Part shown: positions 10,342 to 32,428 of the stretch, piece by piece
Numbering within the stretch: the stretch's first letter is position 1
How the letters are laid out: each line of letters starts with the position of its first letter
Assembly: GCA_041738235.1 (NCBI GenBank)
Contig: JBGSQF010000013.1
Coordinates: 1-61,344, forward strand
Length of the DNA: 61,344 nt
Direction of reading: 5' to 3'
From: Minisyncoccia bacterium
GTDB lineage: Bacteria > Patescibacteriota > Minisyncoccia > Moranbacterales > GCA-2747515
Program-made: the position numbers and the translations under genes
The notes under the pieces: generated by a model
The model's database searches: none
What the model was told of the DNA's origin: nothing
The model's input: only the letters and a program-made list of their open reading frames with translations

Positions 10342-10367
10342 TATTTTTTGAGAATAGATACAAGTTC

Positions 10368-10404
10368 AAAGGCCCCGGGCGATGTTGCGCGATCGGGGCC
10401 TTTT
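10368..10404. terminator. bidirectional hairpin terminator between convergent genes
   Basis: aaaggccccg (10368-10377) pairs with cggggccttt (10394-10403), flanked by A and T runs. Confidence 0.6.
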
Positions 10405-10437
10405 GGTTGAGGTTGCGGGAGAGTGTCTTTGAAACTC

Positions 10438-11259: not shown

Positions 11260-11352
11260 TGTTCGAGTTTTATGTGTCGAACGATCTATGATAGCACGGT
11301 TCCCTCGTGCGTCAATCTCGACTTGAAGTAGTGGATATGCTAGAATAACTCT

Positions 11353-12462
11353 ATGGAAATTGCCAGTATACAAAATATTCCCGAGGTGGTGAATGTCCTC
11401 AAAGTACTTTCGACCGGAGTGATCGCTTTCTTTCTGGCATTTTTTTTGACGCCTATTTGGACCAATATCCTTTTTAAATATAAGATTGGTATTAAGATCA
11501 AGGACTGTTCGGTGCAAGGGGAAAAATTGACCTACGTGAGTTCGCTCCATAAATGTAAGAACGGCACACCGACGATGGGTGGAGTGATCGTATGGGTTTC
11601 GGTGGTCATACTTGCATTTCTTTCGGAGTGGCTTTTTCCGTTGATGGCAGTTTGGACAAACACAAACTTTATTGCTCGGTTGGATTTTCTTAATCGGGCA
11701 CAAACATGGCTTCCACTGTTTGCGTTGGGTATGGGTGGTCTTTTGGGACTTTTGGATGATTATATGAGTGTGCGTGGGATCGGGAAGAACAAAGGAGGGG
11801 GAATGCGATTTCTGATGCGTTTTTATTGGCTTGTTATCATTGCGGGCGTAGGAGCCTGGTGGTTTTATGATAAGCTTGGATGGGACAAGATCCACATTCC
11901 GGCCATGGGGGATTTCTCTATCGGATTGTGGTATATTCCCGTGTTTATATTTGTGATCCTTTTTACGGCGATCTCCTCTAACGAAACGGATGGGCTTGAT
12001 GGTTTGAATGGTGGAGTACTTCTTATGGCATTTGCGGCATTTTCCGTGATTGCTGCTACACAGAACAGAATGGACTTGGCAAGTTTTTGTGCAGCAGTGT
12101 CGGGAGCGCTCCTGGCCTTTTTGTGGTTTAATGTCTATCCAGCTCGATTTTTTATGGGAGATACGGGGGCGATGTCACTGGGAATCACATTGGGTGTAGT
12201 GGCCATGCTGACAAATTCCGTGGTTGTGCTTTTTATCATCGCTTTCCTCTATGTTCTCGAGTCGGGATCGGTGGCAATACAACTCACCTCCAAACGTTGG
12301 TTTCATCGGAAGGTGTTTCTTGCGGCGCCCCTGCACCATCACTTTGAGGCAAAAGGTTGGCCGGAACCAAAAGTAGTGATGCGCGCCTGGATATTTACGA
12401 TGTTTTCTACGATCATTGGAGTGATCATTGCGATCCTCGGAGGCGGAAAAGGATTATTATGA
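11353..12462 (+). CDS. mraY: phospho-N-acetylmuramoyl-pentapeptide transferase
   Basis: MraY signatures HKCKNGTPTMGG and NETDGLDGL. About 10 TM helices, 369 aa. Confidence 0.92.
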   Translation: MEIASIQNIPEVVNVLKVLSTGVIAFFLAFFLTPIWTNILFKYKIGIKIKDCSVQGEKLTYVSSLHKCKNGTPTMGGVIVWVSVVILAFLSEWLFPLMAVWTNTNFIARLDFLNRAQTWLPLFALGMGGLLGLLDDYMSVRGIGKNKGGGMRFLMRFYWLVIIAGVGAWWFYDKLGWDKIHIPAMGDFSIGLWYIPVFIFVILFTAISSNETDGLDGLNGGVLLMAFAAFSVIAATQNRMDLASFCAAVSGALLAFLWFNVYPARFFMGDTGAMSLGITLGVVAMLTNSVVVLFIIAFLYVLESGSVAIQLTSKRWFHRKVFLAAPLHHHFEAKGWPEPKVVMRAWIFTMFSTIIGVIIAILGGGKGLL

Positions 12463-14159: not shown

Positions 14160-14945
14160 ATGCTTATGGCCCGTCATCACGAAAACTATTTTGAGCTTAT
14201 TTGGATGCTTGCCAAGACCGATTTTAAGCTTCGTTATCAGGGGTCGGCTTTGGGGTATGTTTGGGCTCTGCTTAAACCGCTACTTATGTTCCTTATATTG
14301 AATTTTGTATTTTCGTCGCTTTTTAACGCTCGCGGGAGTGGGATAGAACACTACTCCCTTCAGCTTTTAGTGGCTATCATGATGTTTAACTTTTTTGGCG
14401 AGGGATCAAGCGCTGGAATGCAGTCGCTTCTCAATAAATCTCAGTTGGTTACAAAGATCTATGTACCGAGATGGACGATAATTTTTGCTGCAACACTCAA
14501 TAGTGCAATGATATTTTTGATGAATCTTGTGGTGATCGTATTGTTTTTTTCTTGGTATCAATATCTTCCCAGTTTGGCCTCGATCGCGATGTTCTTTGTT
14601 TCATCAATATCCATCTTTGTTCTTGTGGTGTCGTTTGCTTTTTTTACAGCGCCGCTTTTTGTTCGCTTTCGCGATCTCTCGCTGATTTGGGAGGTGATCA
14701 TTTCACTTTTATTCTATATGACTCCAATTTTTTATCCGCTTCAGATGCTTCCCGCAAATGTTCAACAACTTCTTCTTCTCAATCCTATGGCATTTATTAT
14801 CCACTTTACAAAAGAATCCCTTGTTTCTAATCATTTTGCTGAGCTCTGGCAGTACGGGATGTTCTTCTTGATTCTTGCTTCAGGATTTGCATTAAGTATC
14901 TGGTTATATAATAAACTTGCTCCTAGAATTGCTGAGGAAATGTAG
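14160..14945 (+). CDS. ABC-2 type polysaccharide/teichoic-acid exporter permease (Wzm/TagG-like)
   Basis: FKLRYQGSALGYVWALLKPLLMFLILNFVF signature. Six TM helices, 261 aa. Confidence 0.85.
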   Translation: MLMARHHENYFELIWMLAKTDFKLRYQGSALGYVWALLKPLLMFLILNFVFSSLFNARGSGIEHYSLQLLVAIMMFNFFGEGSSAGMQSLLNKSQLVTKIYVPRWTIIFAATLNSAMIFLMNLVVIVLFFSWYQYLPSLASIAMFFVSSISIFVLVVSFAFFTAPLFVRFRDLSLIWEVIISLLFYMTPIFYPLQMLPANVQQLLLLNPMAFIIHFTKESLVSNHFAELWQYGMFFLILASGFALSIWLYNKLAPRIAEEM

Positions 14946-14973
14946 GGGTTATGTAGATCAGTTGAGAAAAAGC

Positions 14974-15711: not shown

Positions 15712-15753
15712 TTTGTGATCGCCAAGATACTATAATTGACTATTGAGGAGTTA

Positions 15754-16942: not shown

Positions 16943-17467
16943 ATGAAAAAAGGAGTTACGATTTGGCTTACGGGTCTGCCTTGTAGTGGTAAGACTACCA
17001 TAGCCCTTGAGATCGAGAGGTATTTTAAGAAGAATAATCTTCCCGTTCAGCGCTTGGACGGAGATGTTGTTCGTGGGACTCTTAGTAAAGACCTTGGTTT
17101 TTCCAAGGAAGACCGCGATAAGAATATTGAGCGCATTTCTTATGTTGCTCAGATGCTTGTGAATAATGGTGTGAATGTTGTAGTGGCATTTGTTTCACCG
17201 TATAGAAAGATGCGTGACTTTGCTCGAAGTGTTTGTCTAAATTTCTGCGAAGTCTATGTGAAATGCGATGTGGAAGAATGTATGAAACGAGATGTGAAAG
17301 GAATGTATAAAAAAGCTCTTAGTGGAGAGATCAAGGATTTTACTGGAGTGCAGGATCCTTACGAGGAACCGGAACACCCTGATGTTATTGTGGATACAAG
17401 GAAACACTCCCTGAAGGATTGTGTAAAACAGATAATTGTGGACTTGGAAGAGAGAAAAGACGAATAG
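16943..17467 (+). CDS. cysC: adenylylsulfate (APS) kinase
   Basis: P-loop GLPCSGKTT, LDGDVVR, and the 174-aa length typical of CysC. Confidence 0.9.
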   Translation: MKKGVTIWLTGLPCSGKTTIALEIERYFKKNNLPVQRLDGDVVRGTLSKDLGFSKEDRDKNIERISYVAQMLVNNGVNVVVAFVSPYRKMRDFARSVCLNFCEVYVKCDVEECMKRDVKGMYKKALSGEIKDFTGVQDPYEEPEHPDVIVDTRKHSLKDCVKQIIVDLEERKDE

Positions 17468-17492: not shown

Positions 17493-18350
17493 ATGACGTA
17501 TTCTATTGTCAAAACATTTAAGAAATTTTTTAAGAAAAGACCGTTTCACATAGTGGCTCTTTTGTCTGTGCGTAATGAAGAACAATATATGGAGAGATGT
17601 CTCAGGCATCTTATTCAACAGGGGATCGATGTATATATTATTGATAATGACTCTGAGGATAACACACGAGAAATTGCTGAGAAATTTCTCGGCCATGGGG
17701 TGATGCATATTGAACGTTTTCCTTATAATGGATACTTTGACCATGTTGGGATTCTTCAGAGGAAGGAGGGGTTGTCGCGGGAAATTGATGCTGACTGGTT
17801 TATCCATCATGATGCTGATGAAATTCGTGAGGCCCCCTTGCCGTATAAGACTCTTTATGAAGCTATATATGATGTCGATAAACAAGGGTATAATGTTATC
17901 AACTTTGATGAATTTGTTTTTACTTCAACAGATCCCGAAGAATCTTTTGAGGGAAAGGATTATGTGTCTGAGATGGGATATTACTATTTTTTTGAACCAG
18001 GAATAATGAGGCGCATGAATGCTTGGAAGAAAAATCGGAGCGTTTCAATAGTGGAGAGTGGTGGGCACAGTATTGAATCTTCAAATTTGAGAGTGTTTCC
18101 GGTGAATTTTATATTGCGACATTATATTTATCTGAGTAAGGCTTACGCGGAGAAGAAATATACTGAGAGAAAGTTTTCTGAGAAAGAGATCGAGGAAAGA
18201 GGTTGGCATGGAAGAAGGGCTGTGATTAAACCTGGTGAAGTGATGGTTCCTTCAAAGGAGATTTTAAAGAGATGCAGGAACGATGGAATATGGGACAGGT
18301 CCGATCCATGGAAAAAGCACTACTTCTTGCATAATGGTGAGCGGTACTAA
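17493..18350 (+). CDS. GT-A glycosyltransferase (Glyco_tranf_2_4 / PF13704-like)
   Basis: LSVRNEEQYMERCLRHLIQQGIDVYIIDNDSEDNT ... DADWFIHHDADE. Confidence 0.6.
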   Translation: MTYSIVKTFKKFFKKRPFHIVALLSVRNEEQYMERCLRHLIQQGIDVYIIDNDSEDNTREIAEKFLGHGVMHIERFPYNGYFDHVGILQRKEGLSREIDADWFIHHDADEIREAPLPYKTLYEAIYDVDKQGYNVINFDEFVFTSTDPEESFEGKDYVSEMGYYYFFEPGIMRRMNAWKKNRSVSIVESGGHSIESSNLRVFPVNFILRHYIYLSKAYAEKKYTERKFSEKEIEERGWHGRRAVIKPGEVMVPSKEILKRCRNDGIWDRSDPWKKHYFLHNGERY

Positions 18351-18358
18351 ATAAATAT

Positions 18359-19168
18359 ATGTTTGGTGGTTTTACAGGCACATTATTGAATAGGCCAACT
18401 CCAATTATAATTGGGGGTTTTTATCGTTCAGGAACAAGTTTAGTGCGAAGGATCTTAGATTCCCATTCGGATATCCACTGTCCTTCTGAGATCAAGTTTT
18501 TTAAAGATTTCTATGGAGATTATCCTGCTGATCCTCTTGCTCATGTGAGGTTCTTCTCTACTGTGAAGAATGTGGGTCTTTCGGAAAGTGAGATACTGAA
18601 CGAAAGTCTCAAGTTTTTTGTAAAGCTCCATGAATTAGCAGCGAAGAAGAAGGGAAAAAGAAGGTGGGCTGATAAAAATCCAGATAATCTTCTTTATCTT
18701 GATCACTGGATGCAAGCTCTTAAAGAGATGCAGTTTGTTTTTGTTGTTAGAAATCCGCTTGATGTGATGGCCTCTTTGCTTGAAGTTAAATTTGAGAAAA
18801 CCATACCAGAAGCATTTGAAGAAAAGATCGAAATATACTCCCAGTTTCTTTTACGTGGGATCGATTTTTTTGAGAAAAATAAAGATTTAGCATTTGTTTT
18901 AAAATATGAAAATCTTGTGCAGAACACTGATGATGAATTACAAAAACTCTTTAGCTTTCTTGGTGAAAGGTTTGAGCCAAAAGTTAAGGCAGATTTTGCA
19001 AGTAGTGAAAGGGGTTCTGGTATAGAGGATCCGAAGGTAGGAAATAGAAAAAATATTCATACAGATAGTATAGACCGATGGAAAAGAGATCTCACATCAA
19101 AGCAAGTCGATCTAACCATCAAGAGGATCACTCCATTGATGAAGAGGGTGGGTTGCTCGTGGTCGTAA
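18359..19168 (+). CDS. PAPS-dependent sulfotransferase
   Basis: 5'-phosphosulfate-binding loop GGFYRSGTSLVRR and 3'-phosphate-binding-like VVRNPLDVMAS. Confidence 0.8.
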   Translation: MFGGFTGTLLNRPTPIIIGGFYRSGTSLVRRILDSHSDIHCPSEIKFFKDFYGDYPADPLAHVRFFSTVKNVGLSESEILNESLKFFVKLHELAAKKKGKRRWADKNPDNLLYLDHWMQALKEMQFVFVVRNPLDVMASLLEVKFEKTIPEAFEEKIEIYSQFLLRGIDFFEKNKDLAFVLKYENLVQNTDDELQKLFSFLGERFEPKVKADFASSERGSGIEDPKVGNRKNIHTDSIDRWKRDLTSKQVDLTIKRITPLMKRVGCSWS

Positions 19169-19220: not shown

Positions 19221-20024
19221 ATGAAGGTAGACAAACAACATCGTGAAAGTTTATTCAAAATTATCCGAGGAGCTGGAAAGATGATGATGGATTCTTACCA
19301 TGCCAAGCATATTATTTACAAGAAGAGGGATAGAACTTTGGTTACGGAAGTGGATAGAAATGTTGATAAGAGAATATGTGATGGATTACAAAAACTTTTT
19401 CCCAAAATACCAGTTCTCAGCGAAGAGCGAAAGGATTTGCGGGAAAGATTGAAGGGTGAATGTGTCTGGATCCTCGATCCGCTTGACGGAACTCTTGATT
19501 TTATTGATAAAACGCGGGAATTTAGTGTTATGCTTGGTCTTGTTGTTGAAAACGAGCCAATCTTTGGAATAGTTTATCTTCCAGTGACTAGAGAACTTTT
19601 CTGGTCACATCGGAGAGAAGGATCATTTATATGTATTGATGGGAGGGAGGAAAGTATACGGGTAAGTTCTCGAAATATAAACCATGCAAGACTGCTTGTC
19701 AGTCGTTCTCATTTGGGACAACTTGAAAGTAGGTTGGCGAGAAAGTACTTTGGTAAATCAATAGAAATGGGGTCATCTGGGGTAAAAATGGTTCGAATTG
19801 CCCAAGGAAAAGCTGAAGCCTACATAAATTCCAGTGACAAAAGTTCGGAATGGGATACCTGTGGAGCTACTGTTATTCTTCAGGAGGCTGGTGGGAACAT
19901 CAGTGACATGGATGGTAATATCATTCGGTATAACGGCATAGATTCTCGTCACAGACATGGTTATGTTGCCACCAATGGAGTATGTCACAATGACATTTTG
20001 GAAGCTATTAGGTCTAATAAATAA
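19221..20024 (+). CDS. cysQ: 3'(2'),5'-bisphosphate nucleotidase, IMPase family (CysQ-like)
   Basis: IMPase motifs SEERKD, WILDPLDGTLDF, WDTCGATVILQEAGG. Sits between sulfotransferase and sat. Confidence 0.75.
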   Translation: MKVDKQHRESLFKIIRGAGKMMMDSYHAKHIIYKKRDRTLVTEVDRNVDKRICDGLQKLFPKIPVLSEERKDLRERLKGECVWILDPLDGTLDFIDKTREFSVMLGLVVENEPIFGIVYLPVTRELFWSHRREGSFICIDGREESIRVSSRNINHARLLVSRSHLGQLESRLARKYFGKSIEMGSSGVKMVRIAQGKAEAYINSSDKSSEWDTCGATVILQEAGGNISDMDGNIIRYNGIDSRHRHGYVATNGVCHNDILEAIRSNK

Positions 20025-20029
20025 AAAGT

Positions 20030-21112
20030 ATGGGAACGGTGATCGTACAAGTAAGTGATGAAGTTATTCAGGAGGCAGATAATATTGCTGATAACGTATA
20101 CGCACCACTTCGTGGATTTCTCCATGAGAAAGACTTTTGGTCGGTCTTAAACACATATCGTCTTACTAGTGGAGATGTCTGGGCGATGCCAATATTTTTT
20201 GATATTGGTGATGATCAGTATGAGTTGATCCGTAATAAGAGCGAATGTATTATTTTGGGACGTCAGGGTCAGCGGTTCCGGATGAGTGAATTATCAATCT
20301 ATGAGGTGGATAAAGGCAAGGCTTCCAAAAAAATATTTGGAACAAGTGATACAGCACATCCTGGTGTTGAAAAATTTTTCAGAACGGGAAAGAGATTTGT
20401 TGGGGGGATTGTGGAAAGAATATCTTCTGGCGCGAAAGATAAGTCGTTGCATTATCGCACGCCTGGAGAATTAAAAGAGTTATTTCAAAAAAATAGTTGG
20501 GAGGATGTCGTGGCTTTCCAGACGCGAAATCCCCCCCATCGATCACATGAGTTTTTGCAAAAGCAAGCCCTTGTACGGGCGGACGCTTTACTCGTCCAGC
20601 CAGTCATAGGACCCAAAAAGTCGGGCGATGTTGCGGACGAGTATATTATTGGAGCATATGAGATTCTTTTTGAGAAGTATTATCCAGATCGGAATGCGTT
20701 GTTAAGCACCTTTCATACGTTTATGCGCTATGCAGGACCGCGTGAGGCTGTTTTTCATGCCCTTGTTCGGAAAAACTTTGGGTGCGCTCGTATGATTGTG
20801 GGACGGGATCATGCTGGAGTGGGGAGTTACTATGATTCATATGCGGCACATCATATATTTGATCAGTTTGAGGCTGGGGAGATTGGGATTTCTGTGCTAA
20901 AATATCAAAATGCTTCGTTTTGCACCTCTTGTTTGGATATTCTTTTTGAAGGGGGGTGTAAATGTGCCGTTGAGAATCGTTTGAACATCTCTGGAACCAG
21001 ATTGCGTGAAATGCTCAAGAATGGAGAAGATATTCCTGAAGGTTTTATGCGAAAAGAAGTTTCGCAATATCTCATTCAGAATAATAAGGACCTTTTTTGT
21101 TTGTCCAGATGA
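20030..21112 (+). CDS. sat: sulfate adenylyltransferase (ATP sulfurylase)
   Basis: QTRNPPHRSHE and GRDHAGVG motifs, 360 aa. Confidence 0.9.
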   Translation: MGTVIVQVSDEVIQEADNIADNVYAPLRGFLHEKDFWSVLNTYRLTSGDVWAMPIFFDIGDDQYELIRNKSECIILGRQGQRFRMSELSIYEVDKGKASKKIFGTSDTAHPGVEKFFRTGKRFVGGIVERISSGAKDKSLHYRTPGELKELFQKNSWEDVVAFQTRNPPHRSHEFLQKQALVRADALLVQPVIGPKKSGDVADEYIIGAYEILFEKYYPDRNALLSTFHTFMRYAGPREAVFHALVRKNFGCARMIVGRDHAGVGSYYDSYAAHHIFDQFEAGEIGISVLKYQNASFCTSCLDILFEGGCKCAVENRLNISGTRLREMLKNGEDIPEGFMRKEVSQYLIQNNKDLFCLSR

Positions 21113-22083
21113 AGGAGAAAAGATTGAAAAAAGAAGTTATCTGTATTCTTGGAATGCATCGTAGTGGGACATCAATGATTTCTCGTCTTTTAAATATCTG
21201 TGGACTGTATCTTGGGGAAAAGGAGGAACTAATGGTCGAGCTTGATCTAAGAAGTAACAGAAAGGGACACTGGGAACATAGAGAAATCCTTGCGATTAAC
21301 GATGAAATTCTCAGTATTTTTGGCGGATCATGGGATGATCCCCCAACATTCCCTGATGGTTGGGAAAATGATCCAAGACTTGATACTCTCTTCGTTCAAG
21401 CAAATGTTTTAGTAAAGAGAATGAGCGATCGCTCTTTGGTGTGGGGTTTTAAGGAACCGCGAACCTGTTTAACGCTTCCTTTTTGGAAAAGAGTGATTCC
21501 AGGAATGACCTATGTCATCCCCATTCGGAGCATGTTTGAGATCGCCCAGTCTCTTTACAAGCGAGATAATTTTGCGTTGGCGCGCGGAATCTTTTTGTGT
21601 GTCATCTATTGGGAAAGTATATTAAAGAATACAAACGGCGAAAGACGGATATTTACTTTACAAAGGGACTATTTCGTTGATTGGAGCCGTGAATTGGGGA
21701 GAGTTTTGGATTTCATAGGTTGCAAAGATTTTTCTTTTTTGGGAAAGGAAGGGTTGGTTGGGGAATTCATATCCCCAGATCTTTTTCATAATAGGGCGGA
21801 GAATCTGGTAAGTTTTCAGGAGGCGAGGAATATCCTACCGAAAGTTGTGAAGGAAAACATAATCCTTAGAAAAGAGCTTGAGGAAAGATATCTAGAGATC
21901 AAAGCAAAAGATTCAACAATCGAAGCGAGAGATCTAGAGATCAAAGCAAAAGATTCAACAATCGAAGCGAGAGATTTGGAGATAAAGGAAGTAAAAGAGG
22001 AAGTGCAATTGGTAAAATCCTCAAAATTTTGGAAGTTACGGGAACAGTACACGACACTAAAAAGTCGATTATTTGGATTGTGA
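21109..22083 (+). CDS. sulfotransferase with C-terminal coiled coil and SSKFWKLR tail
   Basis: PSB loop LGMHRSGTSMISRLL and IPIRSMFEIAQS. Heptad-rich C-terminus ending KSSKFWKLREQYTTLKSRLFGL*. ATG 21109 overlaps the sat stop (ATGA). Confidence 0.8.
   Translation: MKEKRLKKEVICILGMHRSGTSMISRLLNICGLYLGEKEELMVELDLRSNRKGHWEHREILAINDEILSIFGGSWDDPPTFPDGWENDPRLDTLFVQANVLVKRMSDRSLVWGFKEPRTCLTLPFWKRVIPGMTYVIPIRSMFEIAQSLYKRDNFALARGIFLCVIYWESILKNTNGERRIFTLQRDYFVDWSRELGRVLDFIGCKDFSFLGKEGLVGEFISPDLFHNRAENLVSFQEARNILPKVVKENIILRKELEERYLEIKAKDSTIEARDLEIKAKDSTIEARDLEIKEVKEEVQLVKSSKFWKLREQYTTLKSRLFGL
21891..21974 (+). repeat. perfect 2 x 42-bp in-frame tandem duplication (LEIKAKDSTIEARD x2)
   Basis: 21891-21932 is identical to 21933-21974. 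A degenerate partial third copy follows. Confidence 0.95.
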
Positions 22084-22266: not shown

Positions 22267-23420
22267 ATGTTTTGGAAAAAAAGATATCCTTCCGGGATTT
22301 TTTGGTTGTGAGATAAGAGCGCGGTCAATTCTCATTGTTGAACCGAATAAATTTCATGGAGAAACGCTTCCCGGTTTTACAAAATATTTTCAGGATCTGG
22401 GGTACCATGTAGATATCTTTATGCGTATGCGAACATTTGAGGAGAATCCTTTTTCCCGATATCCTCAAACTCTTTATCCGAATATATATAGGGGAAGTTC
22501 GATAGAAATAAAGAACACTCTTGCACTTCGCAAGATTTCTGATTATGACTATATATTCTTTAGTACTAATTTTTATTACTATTACAATAAGGCATATGTG
22601 TCTTATTTGGGATTTTTCCCACAGGCAAGGATCGGTTCTTTATTTGTAGAGCACGGTTTATATTTTTTGCATCATAGTATGTGCAACGCGCTTCATAAAC
22701 AAGGGAGAGTTTTTTCGTTAACGGGTGAGTTGGGAAATGAGGTAGGAATAAAAATGCTCAACCCTCATTACTTTGGTAATGTTCAGATTACTGGGAGGTC
22801 ATCGGATGTGACTCAGTTCATAGTGGTTGGTATTAATGCCGGCAGGAGAAATATGGATTTGCTTGTCAAAGCTGTGGGAGTGCTAATTAAAGAGGGTATT
22901 GAAAATTTTTATGTTACTTGTATAGGCAAGGGGGGGTGTCGACGTGCCTGAGCAGTTAAAAAGGAAGTTTGGTTTTTTCGGTAGACAGCCATTTTCCGTG
23001 CTGTATTAGGAAGTTGAAAAATCGGATTTCGTACTTGCCTTACTAGATCCTTTAGCTGAAGAGCATAGAAAATATCTTAATGGACAGGCAAGTGGGACCA
23101 CTCAATTAAGTCTTGGTTTCGAAAAACCAATGGTACTTGAGAAGAGTTTTGCCCAAATGTATGGTTTTGACAATACAAATGGCCTGATATATGAAGGAGC
23201 GGGACTGGCAGACTGTATGAAATATGCCATAAAAATGGGTCAAGACACGTACAATGCTCTCCAGACTGCCATAGGGGAAAAGTCAGAAAATATAAGATCG
23301 CAGTCACTCAATAACCTTAAAGAATCCCTGAAAAAAATTGAAGAAACGGATCCTAGCTTAAGGCACTCCGCTGAATCTACTGAGCTAAGCTCCTATTTTC
23401 CTGATCAGAGCATTGTTTAA
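22267..23420 (+). pseudogene. disrupted paralogue of the 25574..26875 glycosyltransferase-like gene
   Basis: Readable against the paralogue across three frames. ATG 22267, then a shift in A7 (22276-22282), a shift in G7 (22930-22936), and an in-frame TAG at 23007-23009. Track fragments are 22421..22951 and 23130..23420. Confidence 0.75.
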
Positions 23421-23535: not shown

Positions 23536-24645
23536 ATGAGGCCCAAGAAGGATCCAAAATTAATCATGACACTTTTTGTAAAAGATGAGGTGGATATTAT
23601 TCGCTATAATATAGAATTTCACCTTGCTCATGGAGTGGATTTTATAATTGCAACTGATAACGCTTCTATTGATGGCACAAGGGATATTCTTTTGGAGTAT
23701 CAAAATAAGGGACAGCTATTCTTGATCGATGCTCCGGAGGGAAGTTTTCCCCAGGCGGAATATAATAATAAGATGGCACAGATGGCAATGGAGGAATATG
23801 GCGCGGATGTGATATTTCATTGTGACGCGGATGAGTTTTGGTATCCTAAATATGGGGATCTCAAAACCGAGATATGGGAATCCTTGGAGGATGTTATGAT
23901 TGTAGAGCTTGCCAATGTTCTTTTGGCAGCAAGAAATGGCAATGAGTCTTTTCCCAAGGACGCAAAATACGCTGTAGTGAACCCTATACAGGCTGTTGAT
24001 TACATGAAAGAGACGGAAACAAAAAATCTTTATTTTTTTCGATATCCTCCGAAGGTGATGTTTAAGACAGGAAAGGGGTGTCTTTTGGTGGATCATGGAA
24101 ACCACCATATAATGAATGCAGCTGGGAATTTTGTACAAAGGAATTCTAAAAATATCACTATCTATCATTTTCCCATGAGAAGTAAGGAGAGATTTTTTCA
24201 AAAGGTGATCAAATGCGGTCGAGCAACTGAGAAAAGTAAGGCGTTGGATACAAATCAGAATTTTCACATTCGTCGGTGGTTCGCTGCATACAAAACAGGA
24301 AGGTTGGATGATGAATATGTCCATCTCACGGTGCAAGTGGATGAGGCTAAACAACTTAAGAATCAGGGTTTGCTTGTCGATTTCAGTTTTGAGCATATGA
24401 ATGATGTTGGGCTAGGAAGAGATTTTTCTCCTTTTAGGGAGATTGGGATCTTGGAGAGGGCATTTCAAGATAAAACGCAAGAGCTTCAGGATACAAAGGC
24501 CACGCTTCTTGGATTAACTCACGAGCTTCAGGATACAAAGGCCACGCTTCTTGGATTAACTCACGAGCTTGGGCATTTGAAGTCTTCAAAATTTTGGAAA
24601 TTACGGACAAAGTATATGTCATTAAAAAGCCGATTATTCGGGTGA
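23536..24645 (+). CDS. GT-A glycosyltransferase (PF13704-like) with C-terminal coiled coil and SSKFWKLR tail
   Basis: LFVKDEVDIIRYNIEFHLAHGVDFIIATDNASIDGT ... IFHCDADEFW. Tail KSSKFWKLRTKYMSLKSRLFG*. Confidence 0.65.
   Translation: MRPKKDPKLIMTLFVKDEVDIIRYNIEFHLAHGVDFIIATDNASIDGTRDILLEYQNKGQLFLIDAPEGSFPQAEYNNKMAQMAMEEYGADVIFHCDADEFWYPKYGDLKTEIWESLEDVMIVELANVLLAARNGNESFPKDAKYAVVNPIQAVDYMKETETKNLYFFRYPPKVMFKTGKGCLLVDHGNHHIMNAAGNFVQRNSKNITIYHFPMRSKERFFQKVIKCGRATEKSKALDTNQNFHIRRWFAAYKTGRLDDEYVHLTVQVDEAKQLKNQGLLVDFSFEHMNDVGLGRDFSPFREIGILERAFQDKTQELQDTKATLLGLTHELQDTKATLLGLTHELGHLKSSKFWKLRTKYMSLKSRLFG
24481..24570 (+). repeat. perfect 2 x 42-bp in-frame tandem duplication (ELQDTKATLLGLTH x2) plus 6 nt of a third copy
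   Basis: 24481-24522 is identical to 24523-24564. 24565-24570 repeats the first 6 nt. Confidence 0.95.
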
Positions 24646-24656
24646 TAAATAACCTC

Positions 24657-25403
24657 ATGAATGAGAACATTGCTATTTCTGTAGAAAATGTAAGTAAATC
24701 TTTCCGCATTCCTCATGAGAAAATATCTTCAGTGCGTGGGGTGTTTGTGAATGCTCTTCGTCCCGGCAGGACAACTTACGAAGAGTTTAAAGCTCTCGAC
24801 AATGTGTCCTTTGAGGTAAAGAAGGGTGAATTTTTTGGTATTATCGGGCGTAACGGTAGTGGGAAATCGACACTTCTTAAGATCCTTGCAAATATCTATC
24901 AACCGGATAAAGGAAAAGTTTTTATAGATGGGATGGTCTCACCGTTTCTTGAACTGGGTATAGGATTTAACCCCGAACTTTCCGGACGAGACAACGTGTA
25001 TCTTAATGCTACTGTATTAGGACTTACCAAGAAGCAAATTGATGAGAAATTCGACTCCATCATCGCCTTCTCCGAACTCGATCGGTTTATTGATCAAAAA
25101 CTCAAGAATTATTCTAGTGGGATGCAGGTGCGACTTGCCTTCTCCGTTTCCATATATGCCAATAGAGAGATACTTCTTATGGACGAGGTGTTGGCTGTGG
25201 GGGATGCAAATTTTCACAAAAAGTGTCTTGATCATTTTGAATCTATAAAAGGGAATAAAACCGTTCTACTTGTAACGCACGATCTTGAAACCGCAGAAGA
25301 ATTTTGTGACCGAATAGCAGTTATTGATCAAAGTAAACTTCAATTTGTGGGTTCTCCAAGGGAGTCGGTAAGTATCTATAAAGATCGCATGAAAGAAAAA
25401 TAA
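24657..25403 (+). CDS. ABC exporter ATP-binding protein (Wzt/TagH-like), short form
   Basis: Walker A GRNGSGKSTL, signature YSSGMQVRL, Walker B LLMDEVLAVGD. 248 aa with no C-terminal extension. ATG 24657 lies inside the ORF that opens at 24594. Confidence 0.9.
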   Translation: MNENIAISVENVSKSFRIPHEKISSVRGVFVNALRPGRTTYEEFKALDNVSFEVKKGEFFGIIGRNGSGKSTLLKILANIYQPDKGKVFIDGMVSPFLELGIGFNPELSGRDNVYLNATVLGLTKKQIDEKFDSIIAFSELDRFIDQKLKNYSSGMQVRLAFSVSIYANREILLMDEVLAVGDANFHKKCLDHFESIKGNKTVLLVTHDLETAEEFCDRIAVIDQSKLQFVGSPRESVSIYKDRMKEK

Positions 25404-25573: not shown

Positions 25574-26875
25574 ATGGATACTTCAAAGAAACAGATTCTT
25601 TTAGAATTTCGTGAACATGGGATCAGGGACAAATCGGTTCTTATTGTAGAGCCAAATGAGTGTCATGGAGAAACGCTTCCCGGCTTTACAAAATATTTTC
25701 AAGATCTGGGATATTGTGTAGATATCTTTATGCGAACGGGAACATTTAATGAGAATCCATTTTCGCGATATCCGCAGAGTCTTTATCCAAATATATACAA
25801 GGGTTGTTCGACAGAGATCAAAAATACTCTCGCATCTCCAGAAATCCTTGAATATGACTATGTGTTTTTCAATAGTAATTGGGAGTATGCTCACGGAAAA
25901 ACATACACGGCATATTTGGGTTTTTTCCCACAAGCAAAGTTTGGGTCGATGTTTGTAGAACATGGTGCTTATTTCTTCCAGAAAAATGAATGTAACTGCC
26001 TATATGGACAAGAAAGGGTTTTTGCATTGACAGATGCATTGGGAGGTGAAATGGGAATAAAGACGCTTAGCCCTCACTATTTTGGGGATGTTCGCATAAC
26101 AAAGAAATCATCGGATGAAGTGAGATTTGCAGTTGTTGGGGTCAGCCCTGATAGAAGAAATGTGGATTTACTTTTAGATGCGGTAGATACACTGACAAAA
26201 GGGGGTGTTGAGAATTTTCGTATTACCTGTATTGGAGATGGAAGGAGGAGTGTTCCTAAAGGGTTGGGAGGAGTGCTTAACTTCTTGGGGAGACAGTCTT
26301 TCTCCGTCCTATATGAAGAGGTGGAGAAAGCGGATTTTATCCTTGCTTTATTGGATCCTTCAAGTGAAAATCATAGGAATTATTTACGTGGGAAAGCAAG
26401 CGGTACTGTTCAGCTAAGTCTTGGATTTGGGAAACCAATGATTATCGAGGAACATTTTGCCGAGGTGTATGGATTTAACAATGAAAATTGCTTGCTGTAC
26501 CGGGGAAATGAATTAGCGTCTACAATGAAAAATGCAATAGAAATGAGTCAAGGTGAGTATTGTAATATCCAGCACGGTCTCAAAGATAAGAAAGACGATT
26601 TGGGCATGAAATCGATAAATAATTTAAGAAGATTCCTAGTCAGGGTGAAAGAACTTGATTTAAGGACAAAGAGATGTGCAGAGCTCATTGACTCTGAAAT
26701 GAATAATATAAGAGATGATATAAACCGGATGAATAGGGTCGTTTATGATCTGAATCGGGAAATAACCTTCATGCGATCATCTAGATTTTGGAAGATGCGA
26801 TGCTTGTGGAATAATGTAAAGGTTTTTGTGTCTTCTCCAGCTAAATTTATAAGAAAGTACTTTAAGATTGTATAA
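25574..26875 (+). CDS. GT-B-like glycosyltransferase-like protein with coiled coil and SSRFWKMR tail
   Basis: C-terminal half is GT-B-like (FAVVGVSPDRRNVDLL..., GKASGTVQLSLGFGKPMII). Ends ...MRSSRFWKMRCLWNNVK...*. Family uncertain. Confidence 0.6.
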   Translation: MDTSKKQILLEFREHGIRDKSVLIVEPNECHGETLPGFTKYFQDLGYCVDIFMRTGTFNENPFSRYPQSLYPNIYKGCSTEIKNTLASPEILEYDYVFFNSNWEYAHGKTYTAYLGFFPQAKFGSMFVEHGAYFFQKNECNCLYGQERVFALTDALGGEMGIKTLSPHYFGDVRITKKSSDEVRFAVVGVSPDRRNVDLLLDAVDTLTKGGVENFRITCIGDGRRSVPKGLGGVLNFLGRQSFSVLYEEVEKADFILALLDPSSENHRNYLRGKASGTVQLSLGFGKPMIIEEHFAEVYGFNNENCLLYRGNELASTMKNAIEMSQGEYCNIQHGLKDKKDDLGMKSINNLRRFLVRVKELDLRTKRCAELIDSEMNNIRDDINRMNRVVYDLNREITFMRSSRFWKMRCLWNNVKVFVSSPAKFIRKYFKIV

Positions 26876-26889
26876 TTTTGTTTAATCCC

Positions 26890-27756
26890 ATGAACGTTGC
26901 TTTCTCTGTTATACTTCCAACGTACAATCGCAAGCTATGTATAGGGCGTGCGATAGATTCTTTGCTATCCCAATCATTTAATAGATTCGAGCTTATTGTT
27001 ATTGATGACGGATCCTCTGATGGTACAAAAGACTTCTTGGAGGATAAATATAACAAAGAGTTGAACGATCGAAAAATCCGATATATTAAACTAGAGGAAA
27101 ATAAGGGGGTTTCTTTTGCTCGAAATGAGGGATTGAAGAGGTCACAATATGAGTGGGTTGCTTACCTTGACTCTGACAATCAAATGAGGCCAGATTTTTT
27201 AGGAACATTTTCTAATTATATTATTCGATACCCTGAGAAAAAGGCATTTTATGCTCAAGCAAGAAAGGTTAATTCAGGAGAAATTGTGGGACATGAGTTT
27301 GATTTTAATCGCTTGATACACGGGAATTATATAGATCTTGGGGTTTTTGTTCATGCTCGTAAATTATATGAGACATTCGGTGGATTTGACATTGGTCTGA
27401 GGAGATTAGTAGATTGGGATTTGATTATTCGGTATTCGGAGGAGTATAGTCTTAAGTTTATAGAGGAGGTGCTATTGGATTATTATGACGGATCGGATTT
27501 CTCAAGGATCACAAACTGTGCCTCCCTTGGAGAAAATTATAAGAAAATAGTTTTAGAGCATTACCAGAGAGTGCCATCGGAGTTTTTTATGGAGCAATAC
27601 AATACATATTATAAGATGTATATGGAACTGGAAGAGAGGATGGCAATACTAGAAAAGAATCTTCAACAAAAAAATCAGCAAATCAAACTTATAGAAGCAT
27701 CAAAATTTTGGAAGCTGAGGGAATTTTTGTTAAAGAATATGAGAAGGAAGATATGA
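26890..27756 (+). CDS. family 2 glycosyltransferase with coiled coil and ASKFWKLR tail
   Basis: FSVILPTYNRKLCIGRAIDSLLSQSF..ELIVIDDGSSDGT and LDSDN. Tail EASKFWKLREFLLKNMRRKI*. Confidence 0.85.
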   Translation: MNVAFSVILPTYNRKLCIGRAIDSLLSQSFNRFELIVIDDGSSDGTKDFLEDKYNKELNDRKIRYIKLEENKGVSFARNEGLKRSQYEWVAYLDSDNQMRPDFLGTFSNYIIRYPEKKAFYAQARKVNSGEIVGHEFDFNRLIHGNYIDLGVFVHARKLYETFGGFDIGLRRLVDWDLIIRYSEEYSLKFIEEVLLDYYDGSDFSRITNCASLGENYKKIVLEHYQRVPSEFFMEQYNTYYKMYMELEERMAILEKNLQQKNQQIKLIEASKFWKLREFLLKNMRRKI

Positions 27757-28739
27757 AAAGTGACGTTTCAATCATAATTGTTAATTATGCCTCAAAGGAG
27801 GATACATTTAAGTGTATCCAAAAGATCAAAGAATATACATCTAAAATCTCCTATGAGATCATTGTTGTTGATAATGCTTCAAGGGAGGACATTGGTACGG
27901 AACTGGTCAAAAAGTATCCAGATGTGATTTTTCTCCAAATGTCTTACAATGCAGGATTTGCTCGGGCAAACAATAGAGGTATTGAGATTTCAGGAGGGAG
28001 GTATGTTTTGCTGCTCAATCCAGACGCATTTATTACTGCAAATTCTGTGGACAGATGTGTCCAAAAGATGGATGCCTATCCCGATATTGTTGCGTCCGGT
28101 TGTCAGCTATTAAATTTGGATGGCAGTAAGCAGTTCTCTGGTGGCTATTTTGAACGAGGGAGACGCTGGATTGTGGAGGTTCCATATTGGAGAAGAGTTG
28201 CCAAGCCGGTGTTTGATCTATTTATAAAGGAGAAACAGCTTGATCCGGATCGTGTAGATTGGATAATAGGGGCTTTTCTTTTGGTCAGAAAGGACCCCCT
28301 GAAAAGAGTTGGGTTATTTGATGAAGATTTCTTTCTCTATGCTGAAGAAATTGAGTTATGTTCTCGTCTTAAGAAGTTTGGTAGGGTGGTTATATTTCGA
28401 GATGTCCAAGTATATCACGTTATGGGCGGATCTTCGAGCTATGCATTTGGGACTGATTGTGTTAATCTATGGGACAGGCGTGAGCGGCAACGTATTCTTT
28501 CTGTTCTTGTTTGGCTTAGAAAACAGTACGGCGTTCCATGGTTTTTGATCTCGCTTAGTTGTTTTATTTTTGCTATTCCATTCTATGCATGTGGAAACAT
28601 TCTTGATGTTCTAAGGGGCAGGCAGACTATTTCCCGGGCATTGTATAAAACTGGTAACTATATCTTAAATTGTTTTGTTTGGCTCTCTTATCTGAGGAGA
28701 ATTATTTCCAATAAACCTTATTTCTATAAAACATTATGA
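27753..28739 (+). CDS. family 2 glycosyltransferase with C-terminal TM helices
   Basis: VSIIIVNYASKEDTFKCI...IIVVDNASRED and LLNPDA. ATG 27753 overlaps the preceding stop (ATGA). Confidence 0.85.
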   Translation: MKSDVSIIIVNYASKEDTFKCIQKIKEYTSKISYEIIVVDNASREDIGTELVKKYPDVIFLQMSYNAGFARANNRGIEISGGRYVLLLNPDAFITANSVDRCVQKMDAYPDIVASGCQLLNLDGSKQFSGGYFERGRRWIVEVPYWRRVAKPVFDLFIKEKQLDPDRVDWIIGAFLLVRKDPLKRVGLFDEDFFLYAEEIELCSRLKKFGRVVIFRDVQVYHVMGGSSSYAFGTDCVNLWDRRERQRILSVLVWLRKQYGVPWFLISLSCFIFAIPFYACGNILDVLRGRQTISRALYKTGNYILNCFVWLSYLRRIISNKPYFYKTL

Positions 28740-30019
28740 GCGATGAAGTTAAACTTATAGCTTTTTATCTGCCACAATTTCATACAATCCCTGAAAATGA
28801 TAAATGGTGGGGAGAAGGGTTTACGGAATGGACGAATGTTCGAAAGGCAAAACCTCTTTTTGATGGTCATTATCAACCTCATGTTCCACACAGTGATATT
28901 GGATATTATAACCTTCGTAACATTGAGACTCAGAAACAGCAGGCAAAAACTGCTCAAAAGTATGGCATTTATGGTTTTTGTTACTATCACTATTGGTTTG
29001 GCGGCAAGAAACTTCTTGAAACGCCATTACAAAATGTCTTACAGCATCCAGAGATCGATCTCCCATTCTGTATATGTTGGGCAAATGAGAATTGGACTAG
29101 GAAATGGGATGGGGCTGAAAAGAAGATTCTCATTGCGCAAAAGCACAGCCCTGAAGATGACTTGGCATTTATTAAGGACGTTATGCCAGCATTAAAAGAT
29201 AGTCGATATATTTTCGTGGATGGCAAGCCTCTTCTTGTGGTTTATCGTCCAGCTTTATTTCCTGATTTCAAGGAAACCGCGAAAATTTGGAGGGCAGAAG
29301 TAAAAAAGAATGGTTTTCCGGGTTTGCATATTGCCCGAGTTGAAAATTTTGATAATGGCGTAGCCCCAGAAAAATTTGGATGTGATATTAATATAGACTT
29401 TTCTCCCGATTTTGATCTTGGTGAGTCGATAAGGTCAAAAAAACCCGCTACTTTTTCCTATGATGATTTGGTGGTGCGGAAGTTATCAAAAATTCGTCCA
29501 TACTCGTTTGTACAGAGTGTTTGTCCTTCCTGGGATAACGCTGCAAGGCGTCAGGATGGGGGTGGTTTTACCTTTGTTCACTCTTCACCAGAAAAATATG
29601 AGTATTGGTTGAAGCATTCAATTAAAAAAACACTTATTGAGGGTGGGCGCTCGGATCATAATATGATTTTTATCAATGCTTGGAATGAGTGGGGGGAGGG
29701 TGCACATTTGGAGCCAGACGAGAAGTATGGCTATGCTTATTTAGAAGCAACAAAAAAAGCTATCCATGATGCTCAAATGGAGGTAAAATCGGGTTTTGTT
29801 TTAGAACAAAAGATATTTAAAGAATTTGGTTCTTTGCTTTTAGAGCGAGGAAAGAATCTCGATGAAATAGCAAGATTAAGTTATGTATTGGAACAAAGAG
29901 AGCAGGAATTAAACCTGATGCGATCGTCGAAGTTTTGGAAAATGCGTGAGGCATGGGAGGGTGTAAAATGGCTGGTGAGAAATCCCCTGAAGTGGACAAA
30001 AAAACATATTCTAAAATAG
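28736..30019 (+). CDS. WbsX-like glycosyltransferase/GH99-like protein with coiled coil and SSKFWKMR tail
   Basis: LIAFYLPQFHTIPENDKWWGEGFTEWTNV is the family signature (PF14307-like). Tail RSSKFWKMREAWEGVKW...*. ATGA overlap with the upstream gene. Confidence 0.8.
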   Translation: MSDEVKLIAFYLPQFHTIPENDKWWGEGFTEWTNVRKAKPLFDGHYQPHVPHSDIGYYNLRNIETQKQQAKTAQKYGIYGFCYYHYWFGGKKLLETPLQNVLQHPEIDLPFCICWANENWTRKWDGAEKKILIAQKHSPEDDLAFIKDVMPALKDSRYIFVDGKPLLVVYRPALFPDFKETAKIWRAEVKKNGFPGLHIARVENFDNGVAPEKFGCDINIDFSPDFDLGESIRSKKPATFSYDDLVVRKLSKIRPYSFVQSVCPSWDNAARRQDGGGFTFVHSSPEKYEYWLKHSIKKTLIEGGRSDHNMIFINAWNEWGEGAHLEPDEKYGYAYLEATKKAIHDAQMEVKSGFVLEQKIFKEFGSLLLERGKNLDEIARLSYVLEQREQELNLMRSSKFWKMREAWEGVKWLVRNPLKWTKKHILK

Positions 30020-30211: not shown

Positions 30212-32428
30212 TTGGATAAAGAAATAGCTGTGTTAAAGGTTATACAGAAAGTGCGATATATCGTACGGTCGTCTTGGGCAACATTCCAGAATGAAGGAAT
30301 AATAAGACTTTTTCTTCGTGCGTTCTCTTTCCTTGTTTATGGAAAGGGTGTTTTAAATGTGCGAGAATATGAAAAAAGAAGGAAAGACTTCGATGCATTG
30401 CATGGGATTACTTTGTCGGATGCCATACATTGTCTTAGTGGCGCTGAGGGGGAGGACTACACTAAAGAAAGGTGGAAATTTAGGATGGTTGATATTGTTA
30501 TTCCAATTTACAATGGAATGCAATTTCTGCCTGCTTTATTTGAGAGTGTACTAAAAAATTCCGATATTCCCCATAGGCTAATAGTTGTAGATGATGCAAG
30601 TTCTGATGTTAATGTTTGGCCGTTTTTAGAGGAGATGAAGGAAAAATTTGGTGAGGAAAGAATGATCCTGCTAAAAAATAAAAAAAATTTAGGCTTTGTT
30701 GAAACTGTCAATAAGGCGGTTGGTTATACCAAAAACCATTTTGTTCTACTCAATTCTGATACAGAAGTTCCGAGAGAGTGGCTCTCTCGTTTAATGTTGC
30801 CCATTTTTGAAAATAAAAATATAGCGAGCGTTACACCGTTTTCTAATTCGGCAACTATTTTCAGTTTTCCTATCCCCCAACAGGATAATGATCTATTAAC
30901 TGGGTATTCTTTGAGTGAGATCGATGCGGCTTTTCGTCTCGTGTCAGGTTCGAGGAATAGAATAGCCGTCCCAACTGGGATGGGCTTTTGTATGGGGATA
31001 AACAAAGAAGTAGCTAACGAAATAGGAATGTTCGATGCTGAGAAATTTGGTAGGGGATTTGCTGAAGAAAACGATTGGTGTCAGAGAGCTATCAAGAGGG
31101 GATATAGAAATATAGTAGCGCCAAATGTTTTTGTTTATCACAAACATTGCGCTTCTTTCGATAGTGAAGAAAAGAAACAACTGATCGAAAAAAATCTAAA
31201 GACACTGACGGAAACGTATCCTGGTTATCATAAAGATGTACATGACTTTATAGTAAAAGATCCATTTAAGAAGATACGGGATATTGTTTTGTTTCTCATC
31301 TTGGCAAATCCGAAAAATGAACCAGATCGTCCCATATTGGTCTTTAACCATCTTTTAGGAGGAGGATCAGCTGATTTTATGACAAGAGATATGCAGAATC
31401 GGGTTCAGAGGGGTGCTCAAATATTGGAAGTTTCTTATGATGCACGCAGAAGTGAATATTTTCTCGCTTTTTATTCGGGACCCCATACGATTCGTTATAG
31501 GTTTTCTGATTGGAAAGAATTCGATGATCTTTTTCAGTATTTTGCAATTCAGAAGGTGGAAGTAAACCATATTATTTCATTTAAATATCCCTTGGAGACA
31601 ATCTCCTGGATCGATAGGGTTCGTAGAAATAGAGGTGTTCCTGTAAAATTATACTTACATGACTACTATGCGATATGTCCGAATTACACCTTGGTAAATG
31701 AACTTGGTTCTTACTGTGGTATACCGAATCTTCCAAATGAGCTATCAAGATGTACCACGTGTTTATCTAAGACAAGAACACAGTACACTTTATATACCCC
31801 AGGGAAGGTAGATATCATGCAATGGCGCAAGACTTGGGGACATTTTCTGCTCAATCTGGATGAAATAGTTTGTTTTTCTGAGTCATCAAAAAATATCTTA
31901 TTACGAGCGTATCCGCAACTTACCTCTCGGAGTCTCATAGTTCGCCCACATGAAGTGAATTATCTTGATGAGATTTGGAAGGGACCACGTCGTAGAAATT
32001 CGAATGAACCTTTGAACGTGGGTGTTTTGGGGGGGATCAACTTTGTGAAAGGAGCATCTCTGTTGAAGGAACTTGCTTTAATTATCAAGAAGGGAGAAAT
32101 AAACATGCAAATAGTCATTATTGGAGAATATGTGGAAAAACAGAAGCACAAAAATATTACGGTAACGGGGAAATTTCAACTTAAGGACATTGCTCATCTT
32201 ACAAAAAAATACAAGATTGATATTTTCTTTATTCCTTCGATCTGGCCTGAAACATTTTCTTTTACTGCAGAAGAGGTTATGCAGATGGGATATCCTTTAA
32301 TCGTATTTGATATTGGTGCCCCAGCCGAGAGAGTAAGAAGATATAAAAGGGGGATCATTGTCTCTGAGGTTAGTGCTCAGTTGGCCTATAAGGCACTTCA
32401 AAAATATAATGAAAAGTTAAAAATATGA
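30212..32428 (+). CDS. two-domain glycosyltransferase (N-terminal GT2 plus C-terminal GT-B/GT4-like)
   Basis: GT2 part: VDIVIPIYNGMQFL...LIVVDDASSD, NSDTEV. GT-B part: VGVLGGINFVKGASLL..., PSIWPETFSFTAEEVMQMGYPLIVFDIGA. TTG start, 738 aa. Confidence 0.8.
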   Translation: MDKEIAVLKVIQKVRYIVRSSWATFQNEGIIRLFLRAFSFLVYGKGVLNVREYEKRRKDFDALHGITLSDAIHCLSGAEGEDYTKERWKFRMVDIVIPIYNGMQFLPALFESVLKNSDIPHRLIVVDDASSDVNVWPFLEEMKEKFGEERMILLKNKKNLGFVETVNKAVGYTKNHFVLLNSDTEVPREWLSRLMLPIFENKNIASVTPFSNSATIFSFPIPQQDNDLLTGYSLSEIDAAFRLVSGSRNRIAVPTGMGFCMGINKEVANEIGMFDAEKFGRGFAEENDWCQRAIKRGYRNIVAPNVFVYHKHCASFDSEEKKQLIEKNLKTLTETYPGYHKDVHDFIVKDPFKKIRDIVLFLILANPKNEPDRPILVFNHLLGGGSADFMTRDMQNRVQRGAQILEVSYDARRSEYFLAFYSGPHTIRYRFSDWKEFDDLFQYFAIQKVEVNHIISFKYPLETISWIDRVRRNRGVPVKLYLHDYYAICPNYTLVNELGSYCGIPNLPNELSRCTTCLSKTRTQYTLYTPGKVDIMQWRKTWGHFLLNLDEIVCFSESSKNILLRAYPQLTSRSLIVRPHEVNYLDEIWKGPRRRNSNEPLNVGVLGGINFVKGASLLKELALIIKKGEINMQIVIIGEYVEKQKHKNITVTGKFQLKDIAHLTKKYKIDIFFIPSIWPETFSFTAEEVMQMGYPLIVFDIGAPAERVRRYKRGIIVSEVSAQLAYKALQKYNEKLKI

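Follow-up and report, generated by a model that had tools for sequence, protein, structure and literature searches.

A stalked sulfotransferase in an ABC-exporter glycan locus of a Minisyncoccia bacterium: a putatively docked and possibly chain-capping enzyme

The gene at positions 21109 to 22083 of a 61,344-nucleotide stretch of DNA from a Minisyncoccia bacterium (contig JBGSQF010000013.1 of assembly GCA_041738235.1, positions 1 to 61,344 of the forward strand; hereafter the window) encodes a sulfotransferase of 324 aa that, judged from its sequence and predicted structure, is of the type dependent on 3'-phosphoadenosine 5'-phosphosulfate (PAPS) and has an intact active site. The catalytic head is followed by a helical stalk and a basic, aromatic tail, and the gene lies in a locus for the assembly and export of a glycan through the ABC transporter Wzm/Wzt. 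From sequence, and by analogy with known chain terminators, we tentatively favour, with somewhat less than even confidence, the reading that this enzyme caps glycan chains with a distal sulfate that stops their extension, in a system where export is not gated by the cap. An earlier sequence-only reading of the same DNA had gone further and likened the protein to WbdD of the Escherichia coli O9a pathway, with sulfate as a possible terminating cap and the stalk as a possible ruler of chain length. Compared by sequence with its relatives, the window system is a derived variant, an atypical member of its family, without a carbohydrate-binding module (CBM) on Wzt, and it is the family-level pattern that is the valuable part of the analysis.

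The sulfotransferase head and its relatives

The open reading frame (ORF) was listed from 21097 to 22083 with a TTG start; the ATG at 21109, which gives the 324-aa product, shares bases (ATGA) with the stop codon that ends the ATP-sulfurylase gene upstream, an arrangement suggesting that the two are translationally coupled. This gene and all other window features for which coordinates are given here lie on the + strand. The head occupies residues 1 to ~225-230 (21109..21798), as delimited by motifs, a profile, an AlphaFold2 model and Foldseek. Although the single sequence falls short of the Pfam gathering cut-off for Sulfotransfer_3 (PF13469), scoring 16.6 bits where 27 are required (E 0.0096), the assignment to sulfotransferases made by the sequence-only reading is borne out on several grounds. 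There are 478 homologues at E <= 1e-3, the majority with PF13469, and by this comparison the protein is a divergent PF13469 member, most homologues at 35-50% identity carrying that domain. In an alignment of 65 homologues, the 5'-phosphosulfate (5'-PSB) loop GMHRSGTS and the residues E56, K115, P117, R118 and S148 show little or no variation, and a profile built from this alignment matches solved sulfotransferases in the PDB. The AlphaFold2 model (mean predicted local distance difference test score, pLDDT, of 90) agrees, its head returning tyrosylprotein sulfotransferases including TPST2, the sulfotransferase domains of CurM and olefin synthase, and the mycobacterial Stf9 and Stf1 in Foldseek. 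The same profile and fold searches against the PDB returned no homology to the methyltransferase or kinase of WbdD, the matches being sulfotransferases and P-loop kinases of other types.

The structural matches bear on the acceptor. The best of them are tyrosylprotein sulfotransferases (E ~2e-5, TM ~0.4), which would suit an enzyme of the RaxST/TPST kind acting on protein tyrosine, or one acting on a lipid, whose position in a glycan locus is incidental. Such matches, however, are weak and reflect the fold in general, whereas the gene is translationally coupled inside a block of glycosyltransferase (GT) and ABC-transporter genes and its relatives are found fused to GT modules and to Wzt, and we consider a non-glycan acceptor highly improbable.

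It is the placement of these relatives that points to a capping role. For the sulfotransferase and the window Wzt alike, the nearest relatives come from bacteria of the Candidate Phyla Radiation (CPR; Moranbacteria, Parcubacteria, Paceibacterota and Minisyncoccota), the best match among GTDB representatives being one of 44% from Candidatus Moraniibacteriota. In a survey in which one genome per species was scanned and 80 loci were kept, with neighbours identified by BLAST, Pfam and contig look-ups, sulfotransferases with a coiled coil and a tail of the form S-x-S-W-R-x-T-x-P-L-R stand directly downstream of wzm and a wzt bearing the Wzt_C module in a member of the Nitrospirota (L019), an actinomycete (L054) and a member of the Desulfocapsaceae (L076), and a sulfotransferase with coiled coil and tail lies 8 kb from such a pair in Sedimenticola (L077). 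Two further loci (L084 and L085) have a stalked sulfotransferase, 48% identical to that of the window over 73% of its length, directly after wzm-wzt(Wzt_C); it is the sole tail-bearing ORF within 10 kb, and these loci also hold another sulfotransferase, one without a stalk; such a pairing of stalked with stalk-less enzyme recurs in the window, L084 and L090. Overall, Wzm/Wzt genes lie within 10 kb in 13 of the 24 tail-bearing loci and in 10 of the 56 others (Fisher p = 0.002), and among loci with the S-W-R variant of the tail the sulfotransferase is the sole tail-bearing ORF in 17 of 20, a count made with a regular expression that may miss diverged tails.

In other relatives the same order of parts is built into a single polypeptide. 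A sulfotransferase, coiled coil and tail are fused ahead of GT2+GT1 modules (L035, L078), GT2+GT2 (L048), GT2+WbsX (L070) and GT4 (L002), the last of these, at 9932-12319 of its locus in Candidatus Moraniibacteriota, being the closest homologue among species representatives. This fusion adjoins a Wzt with a Wzt_C module, the nucleotide-binding domain (NBD) of which is 72% identical to the window Wzt. Fusion to the transporter itself is also found: in the metagenomic protein P0051, from a truncated contig, a Wzt NBD leads through a charged helix of ~130 residues into a sulfotransferase of the present family, with 66% identity to the window Wzt in the NBD and 52% to the window sulfotransferase, and in Paenibacillus (L056, L057 and L058, ~15.9 kb) Wzt has the order NBD-TPR-Sulfotransfer_1, with the sulfotransferase where the CBM usually sits. 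Because orthologous and fused relatives thus occupy the slot held by the terminators WbdD, WbbB and the Klebsiella O7 ORF6 protein, the window enzyme would probably sulfate the non-reducing end of its glycan and block further extension.

The stalk and the tail

Behind the head the AlphaFold2 model places a linker (residues ~226-250 or, as 21799..21858, ~231-250; pLDDT 60-72) and then one long helix (residues 251-303; 21859..22017), predicted with confidence (pLDDT 85-97), whose 53 aa span ~8 nm and are 50% charged, as the model and a heptad analysis describe it. Within the stalk, Tandem Repeats Finder (TRF) detects a 42-bp tandem repeat at 21886..21987 (2.5 copies, 93% matches, score 176) that encodes the 14-aa unit LEIKAKDSTIEARD twice, the duplicated unit that had been noticed from the sequence. 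The orthologue in a sister strain, 78% identical, has exactly one 14-aa unit fewer and is collinear elsewhere, from which it follows that the unit was duplicated recently and in register with the heptads. The 61-kb window has just two tandem repeats of long period, both of 42 bp, the other lying at 24474-24570 in the stalk of a GT92-like glycosyltransferase (2.3 copies, 96% matches) and encoding ELQDTKATLLGLTH twice. In the sister strain (L086) this second stalk has both ELQDTKATLLGLTH-type units, diverged, together with one extra heptad. A co-lengthening of the two stalks was considered and rejected, the sister strain differing by -14 aa in the sulfotransferase and +7 aa in the GT92-like protein, so that the two lengths are independent. 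Such changes between close strains by whole heptads, of 7 or 14 aa, are what would be expected if helical phase matters. Tandem repeats of 7 or 14 aa are frequent in stalks across the family, and the L002 stalk has three tandem 14-aa units KQIAEQEKVNAQLS; the spacer, counted from the conserved His as far as the Trp of the tail, is 81 residues here and ranges from 63 to 346 in the family.

The protein ends in the basic and aromatic tail SKFWKLREQYTTLKSRLFGL (22021..22080), delimited by a motif scan, a hidden Markov model (HMM) and the AlphaFold2 model as a helix of residues 306-322. Its basic and aromatic character, remarked on before, is evident in SSKFWKLREQYTTLKSRLFGL, which has a net charge of +4 and four aromatic residues and forms a terminal helix after a break from the stalk in the model. 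The amphipathic character that had also been ascribed to it was dropped, as none of the five tails in the window has a helical hydrophobic moment above that of shuffled sequences. These five tails were found by a motif scan and a small tail HMM; each follows a helical stretch and takes the form S-[SK]-[KR]-F-W-K-[LM]-R, and apart from the sulfotransferase they belong to a GT2_4/GT92-like enzyme (23536..24645, tail SSKFWKLR), a GT-B fold enzyme of 433 aa (25574..26875, SSRFWKMR), a GT2 enzyme (26878..27756, ASKFWKLR) and a WbsX-family GT (28736..30019, SSKFWKMR). The second of these has no Pfam or NCBIfam match, but an AlphaFold model made with an alignment of homologues predicts with confidence a GT-B fold closest to BshA, PimA and MshA (E ~1e-10), with the consequence that all four tail-bearing partners are glycosyltransferases. 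Its family is small, with 39 matches, some fused to GT2 or DUF6492 domains. Beyond the window, an S-x-x-W-K/R tail after a helical stretch occurs in the variants SKFWKLR and SxSWRxTxPLR on sulfotransferases and GTs of several phyla, among them a GT2 in a Parcubacteria locus (L082 6659-7516) and a GT2-coiled-coil protein in Geomonas (L068 1301-3082), and the Pfam scans run reported no family covering the motif. Its distribution gives this tail, with the helical stalk before it, the look of a docking module that can be moved between enzymes.

Capping, decoration and the transporter

According to the reading favoured here, the enzyme would sulfate a polyprenyl-linked glycan on the cytoplasmic face of the membrane, ahead of export by Wzm/Wzt, with PAPS supplied by the ATP sulfurylase and APS kinase of the locus and PAP, the spent donor, removed by its CysQ. 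The last ~95 residues would serve as a reusable docking device composed of flexible linker, helical spacer of ~53 residues and S-x-x-W-K/R tail, the tail presumably tethering it to the membrane or to a partner protein, with the head at work on the lengthening lipid-linked chain at a distance of ~6-10 nm. The sulfate would most likely be placed on the distal, non-reducing end and would block further extension, and any internal sulfation might fall to the stalk-less sulfotransferase. With the same stalk and tail present on four GTs, the stalk in the window may mainly assemble and position enzymes.

A number of observations weigh against this reading. The window Wzt (24657..25403, ~248 aa) is a bare nucleotide-binding domain, with an ABC_tran domain and no C-terminal CBM, and no separate or remnant module was found when the whole window was searched by tblastn with eight Wzt_C modules from related loci (best E 0.3). 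Stalked homologues of the sulfotransferase stand beside CBM-less Wzt proteins elsewhere as well (L082/L083, L089, L035, L031, L080). Heavy sulfation of internal residues would equally suit a locus with a dedicated PAPS pathway and two sulfotransferases. In the stalk, the low-confidence linker of ~25 residues in the model speaks against a rigid ruler, and the best heptad frame has hydrophobic residues at 100% of a-positions and 38% of d-positions, with 50% of residues charged. The stalk is moreover short, the non-catalytic region amounting to ~95 aa compared with a C-terminal region of ~250 aa in WbdD (PMC3482155). The stalks of the four tail-bearing GTs, at ~40-58 residues, are similar to that of the sulfotransferase, which places its head no further from the tail than theirs. 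The tail itself has a hydrophobic moment (Eisenberg) of 0.25, against 0.27 +/- 0.13 for shuffled sequences, and its spread suggests a general docking module and not a signature of terminators. Finally, the glycan acceptor, capping, termination, docking, oligomerisation and terminal regiospecificity are all deduced from sequence and model.

Wherever capped systems have been characterised, the cap is read by a CBM on Wzt, and CBM-less transporters such as those of Klebsiella O2a/O1 export without a cap, with no terminator setting chain length (PMC11231755, PMC9445017 for the former; PMC11231755 for the latter). As the window Wzt has no such module, export here could not be gated by a CBM reading a cap. 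Of the 120 closest relatives of the window Wzt, 70 are long (~390-435 aa; those listed have Wzt_C) and 48 short, the two interleaved. 

The alternative to be taken most seriously, which we rate as a real though lesser possibility, is accordingly a decorating sulfotransferase that modifies internal residues of each repeat, its stalk and tail a generic anchor to the membrane or a complex, common to the enzymes of the assembly line, and chain length arising, as in Klebsiella O2a, from a coupling of extension to an exporter without CBM. The bare Wzt, the dedicated PAPS pathway with the high sulfate flux that it suggests, and the occurrence of the stalk and tail on four window GTs, on the GT2 of the Parcubacteria relative and on the Geomonas protein all suit a decorating enzyme, as does the lack of a length-determining terminator in transporter systems of the O2a type (PMC11231755). 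It has to contend with the stalk-less sulfotransferase of the locus, which could already carry out internal sulfation, and with the finding that elsewhere the sulfotransferase is mostly the sole stalked enzyme, either next to a Wzt that has a CBM or joined to GT modules that follow it. 

The full model of the sequence-only reading, a terminator of the WbdD type with a stalk that sets the modal length of the glycan and a cap without which export does not occur, appears unlikely. It can appeal to the order of head, stalk and tail, to the in-register 14-aa difference between strains, to the recurrent heptad-multiple repeats in the stalks of relatives (as in the threefold unit of L002) and to a five-fold variation of the spacer in the family. 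Without a CBM, however, there is no known way of gating export on the cap, the GT stalks are of similar length, the linker between head and stalk is flexible, and the sulfotransferase and GT92-like stalks have changed independently between the two strains. As no CBM gates export and four GTs are equally stalked, a length-setting role of the stalk is unsupported in the window. The resemblance to WbdD survives in part: the order of domains speaks for it, as does the family context, more strongly than the single sequence could show, whereas the Wzt has no CBM, stalk and tail occur on other enzymes besides the sulfotransferase and the heads are not homologous. Much the same may be said of the heptad-rich stalk that had been proposed, for which the helix and its 14-aa duplication are found but the heptad pattern is partial; the stalk may form either a weak coiled coil or a single helix rich in charge. 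A capping enzyme positioned by its stalk, rather than a ruler, remains the reading that we prefer.

The locus, known terminators and the meaning of a possible sulfate cap

Between 11.3 and 36 kb of the window all genes lie on the + strand, and ~11 GTs form an operon-like block with the PAPS genes, a WecA-like initiator and Wzm/Wzt. The block opens with the initiating polyprenyl-phosphate sugar-phosphate transferase of the WecA/MraY family (11353..12462), followed by a GT1 (12550-13737), the ABC-2 permease Wzm (14160..14945), a GT2 (14917-15711) and a GT8 (15736-16812). The sulfate-activating genes come next, interspersed with others: the APS (adenosine 5'-phosphosulfate) kinase CysC, for the second step of PAPS supply (16943..17467), a GT2 (17493-18350), the second sulfotransferase (18359..19168), which is without stalk or tail, has solid PF13469/PF00685 matches and weakly resembles the Nod-factor sulfotransferase NoeE, a CysQ-like protein of the inositol-monophosphatase family for the removal of PAP (3'-phosphoadenosine 5'-phosphate; 19221..20024), and the ATP sulfurylase for the first step (20030..21112). 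In the sister strain the gene order is the same from the WecA-like initiator to the stalked sulfotransferase, which is the extent of its contig.

Directly downstream of the stalked sulfotransferase lies a probable pseudogene (22277-23375), a degraded paralogue of the GT-B gene at 25574-26875. Its two frames have 64% and 51% identity to the product of that gene; it has a frameshift near 22932, an in-frame stop and no start codon at the N-terminus, beside a poly-A run, and the stalk end and tail are missing. Past the tail-bearing GTs and Wzt, with a further GT2 (27708-28739) among them, stands a two-domain protein without tail (30212..32428) in which GT2 and GT1 domains were found, in keeping with the polymerase-like GT that had been proposed there. 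It is a polymerase candidate, and could be the membrane-proximal polymerase. The idea that it is specifically orthologous to the GT modules of sulfotransferase fusions in other genomes was rejected, the similarity being of a generic GT2 kind (23-36%). The glycan locus ends with a protein of the right-handed beta-helix/NosD-like kind that has DUF5648 at its C-terminus (32425-34515), and a DUF6056 membrane protein follows (34659-36026); next to the Parcubacteria locus L082 there is likewise a protein with DUF5648. With both Wzm and Wzt in place, the description of the region as an ABC-exporter glycan locus holds. The best curated matches of Wzt are exporters of teichoic acid and galactan and, taken with the CPR relatives, these indicate that the product is probably a cell-envelope glycan of a CPR bacterium and not a lipopolysaccharide (LPS) O-antigen.

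Two observations concern the window at large. The SecD gene at 36162-38012 encodes a protein in which a peptidyl-prolyl isomerase of the PPIC type is inserted at residues ~183-268, between the first P1 domain and the P1 head. Over the window from 1 to 61344 the GC skew (guanine over cytosine) is strongly positive, at 0.13-0.31 in every 2-kb window, long ORFs are nearly all on the + strand, and the GC content is 37-48%; several of the encoded proteins have their nearest relatives among CPR/Patescibacteria.

Among known systems, WbdD (E. coli O9a/O8 and Klebsiella O3/O5), a terminating kinase-methyltransferase or methyltransferase with a coiled-coil ruler, is close in layout, with a modifying head, an extended helix, a C-terminal docking region and a Wzm/Wzt locus, and its gene order of wzm, CBM-bearing wzt and enzyme is identical to that in several relatives of the window protein. 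Its head differs, a methyltransferase and kinase as opposed to an unrelated sulfotransferase fold, and systems of its type have a CBM on Wzt that the window lacks, while in the window four GTs have the stalk and tail as well. WbbB (Klebsiella O12) and ORF6 (Klebsiella O7) unite terminator, coiled coil and polymerase GT modules in a single polypeptide (PMC11231755), a layout matched by the fused relatives L035, L078, L048, L070 and L002, in which the sulfotransferase is N-terminal and distal. The window protein differs from these in standing alone and ending after its tail, and its cap would be sulfate as compared with beta-Kdo (3-deoxy-D-manno-octulosonic acid) or methyl-phosphate (PMC11231755). 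Klebsiella O2a/O1 shares the CBM-less Wzt with the window, and the terminal pyruvate of O1 controls neither chain length nor export (PMC11231755). Its chemistry is different, and it has no stalk-mounted modifying enzyme of the present kind.

Sulfotransferases of other pathways offer partial parallels. The mammalian HNK-1 sulfotransferase acts on matriglycan, where sulfate stops elongation by LARGE1, a eukaryotic precedent for a chain-stopping sulfate cap; it is a Golgi enzyme in an unrelated context, with neither a stalk ruler nor ABC export. NodH and NoeE of rhizobia, the cyanobacterial synechan sulfotransferases and mycobacterial Stf are, like the window enzyme, PAPS-dependent proteins of the PF13469/PF00685 type in glycan or glycolipid pathways. 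They decorate defined internal or terminal positions, and are not known to have a stalk of coiled coil or a tail, or to be linked with Wzm/Wzt. The wb cluster of Aeromonas salmonicida has an unexplained ORF with a sulfotransferase domain beside Wzt and WbbB, which is uninformative for the present case.

The caps named for ABC-exported glycans are methyl, methyl-phosphate and Kdo, together with a non-gating pyruvate (PMC11231755, PMC9445017). In the literature searched, which did not include the census of terminator chemistries by Mann, Kimber and Whitfield (2019; Glycobiology 29:822), neither a bacterial sulfate cap in this pathway nor a sulfotransferase linked to WbdD or to a bacterial molecular ruler was found. 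The abstract of that census reportedly predicts new chemistries, and the census may list sulfotransferases; priority for a sulfate terminator is for that reason not claimed.

Extended from the window to the family, the comparison allows a broader proposal, which we offer as speculative and consider rather doubtful in its entirety. Sulfate would be an uncharacterised terminating cap across CPR bacteria, Nitrospirota, Desulfobacterota, Actinomycetota, Paenibacillus and nitrifiers, installed by stalked sulfotransferases and read by the CBMs of Wzt; lineages that have lost the CBM, the present one included, would couple capping to export through the S-x-x-W-K/R tail or through fusion of Wzt to the sulfotransferase, as in P0051 and Paenibacillus, and the tail would assemble the stalked enzymes into a membrane-docked glycan factory. 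The cultured carriers of family members, namely Nitrosovibrio sp. Nv4, Nitrosospira sp. Nsp11, Paenibacillus spp., Cohnella yongneupensis and Alicyclobacillus mengziensis, make the idea of a sulfate cap directly testable. If it is true, sulfate would be a new and strongly anionic cap chemistry, would imply a new class of cap-reading Wzt modules, and would extend the logic of terminator and ruler to uncultured CPR bacteria and to envelopes of the Gram-positive type. Independently of the cap, the binding partner of the S-x-x-W-K/R tail would show how glycan assembly lines are organised.

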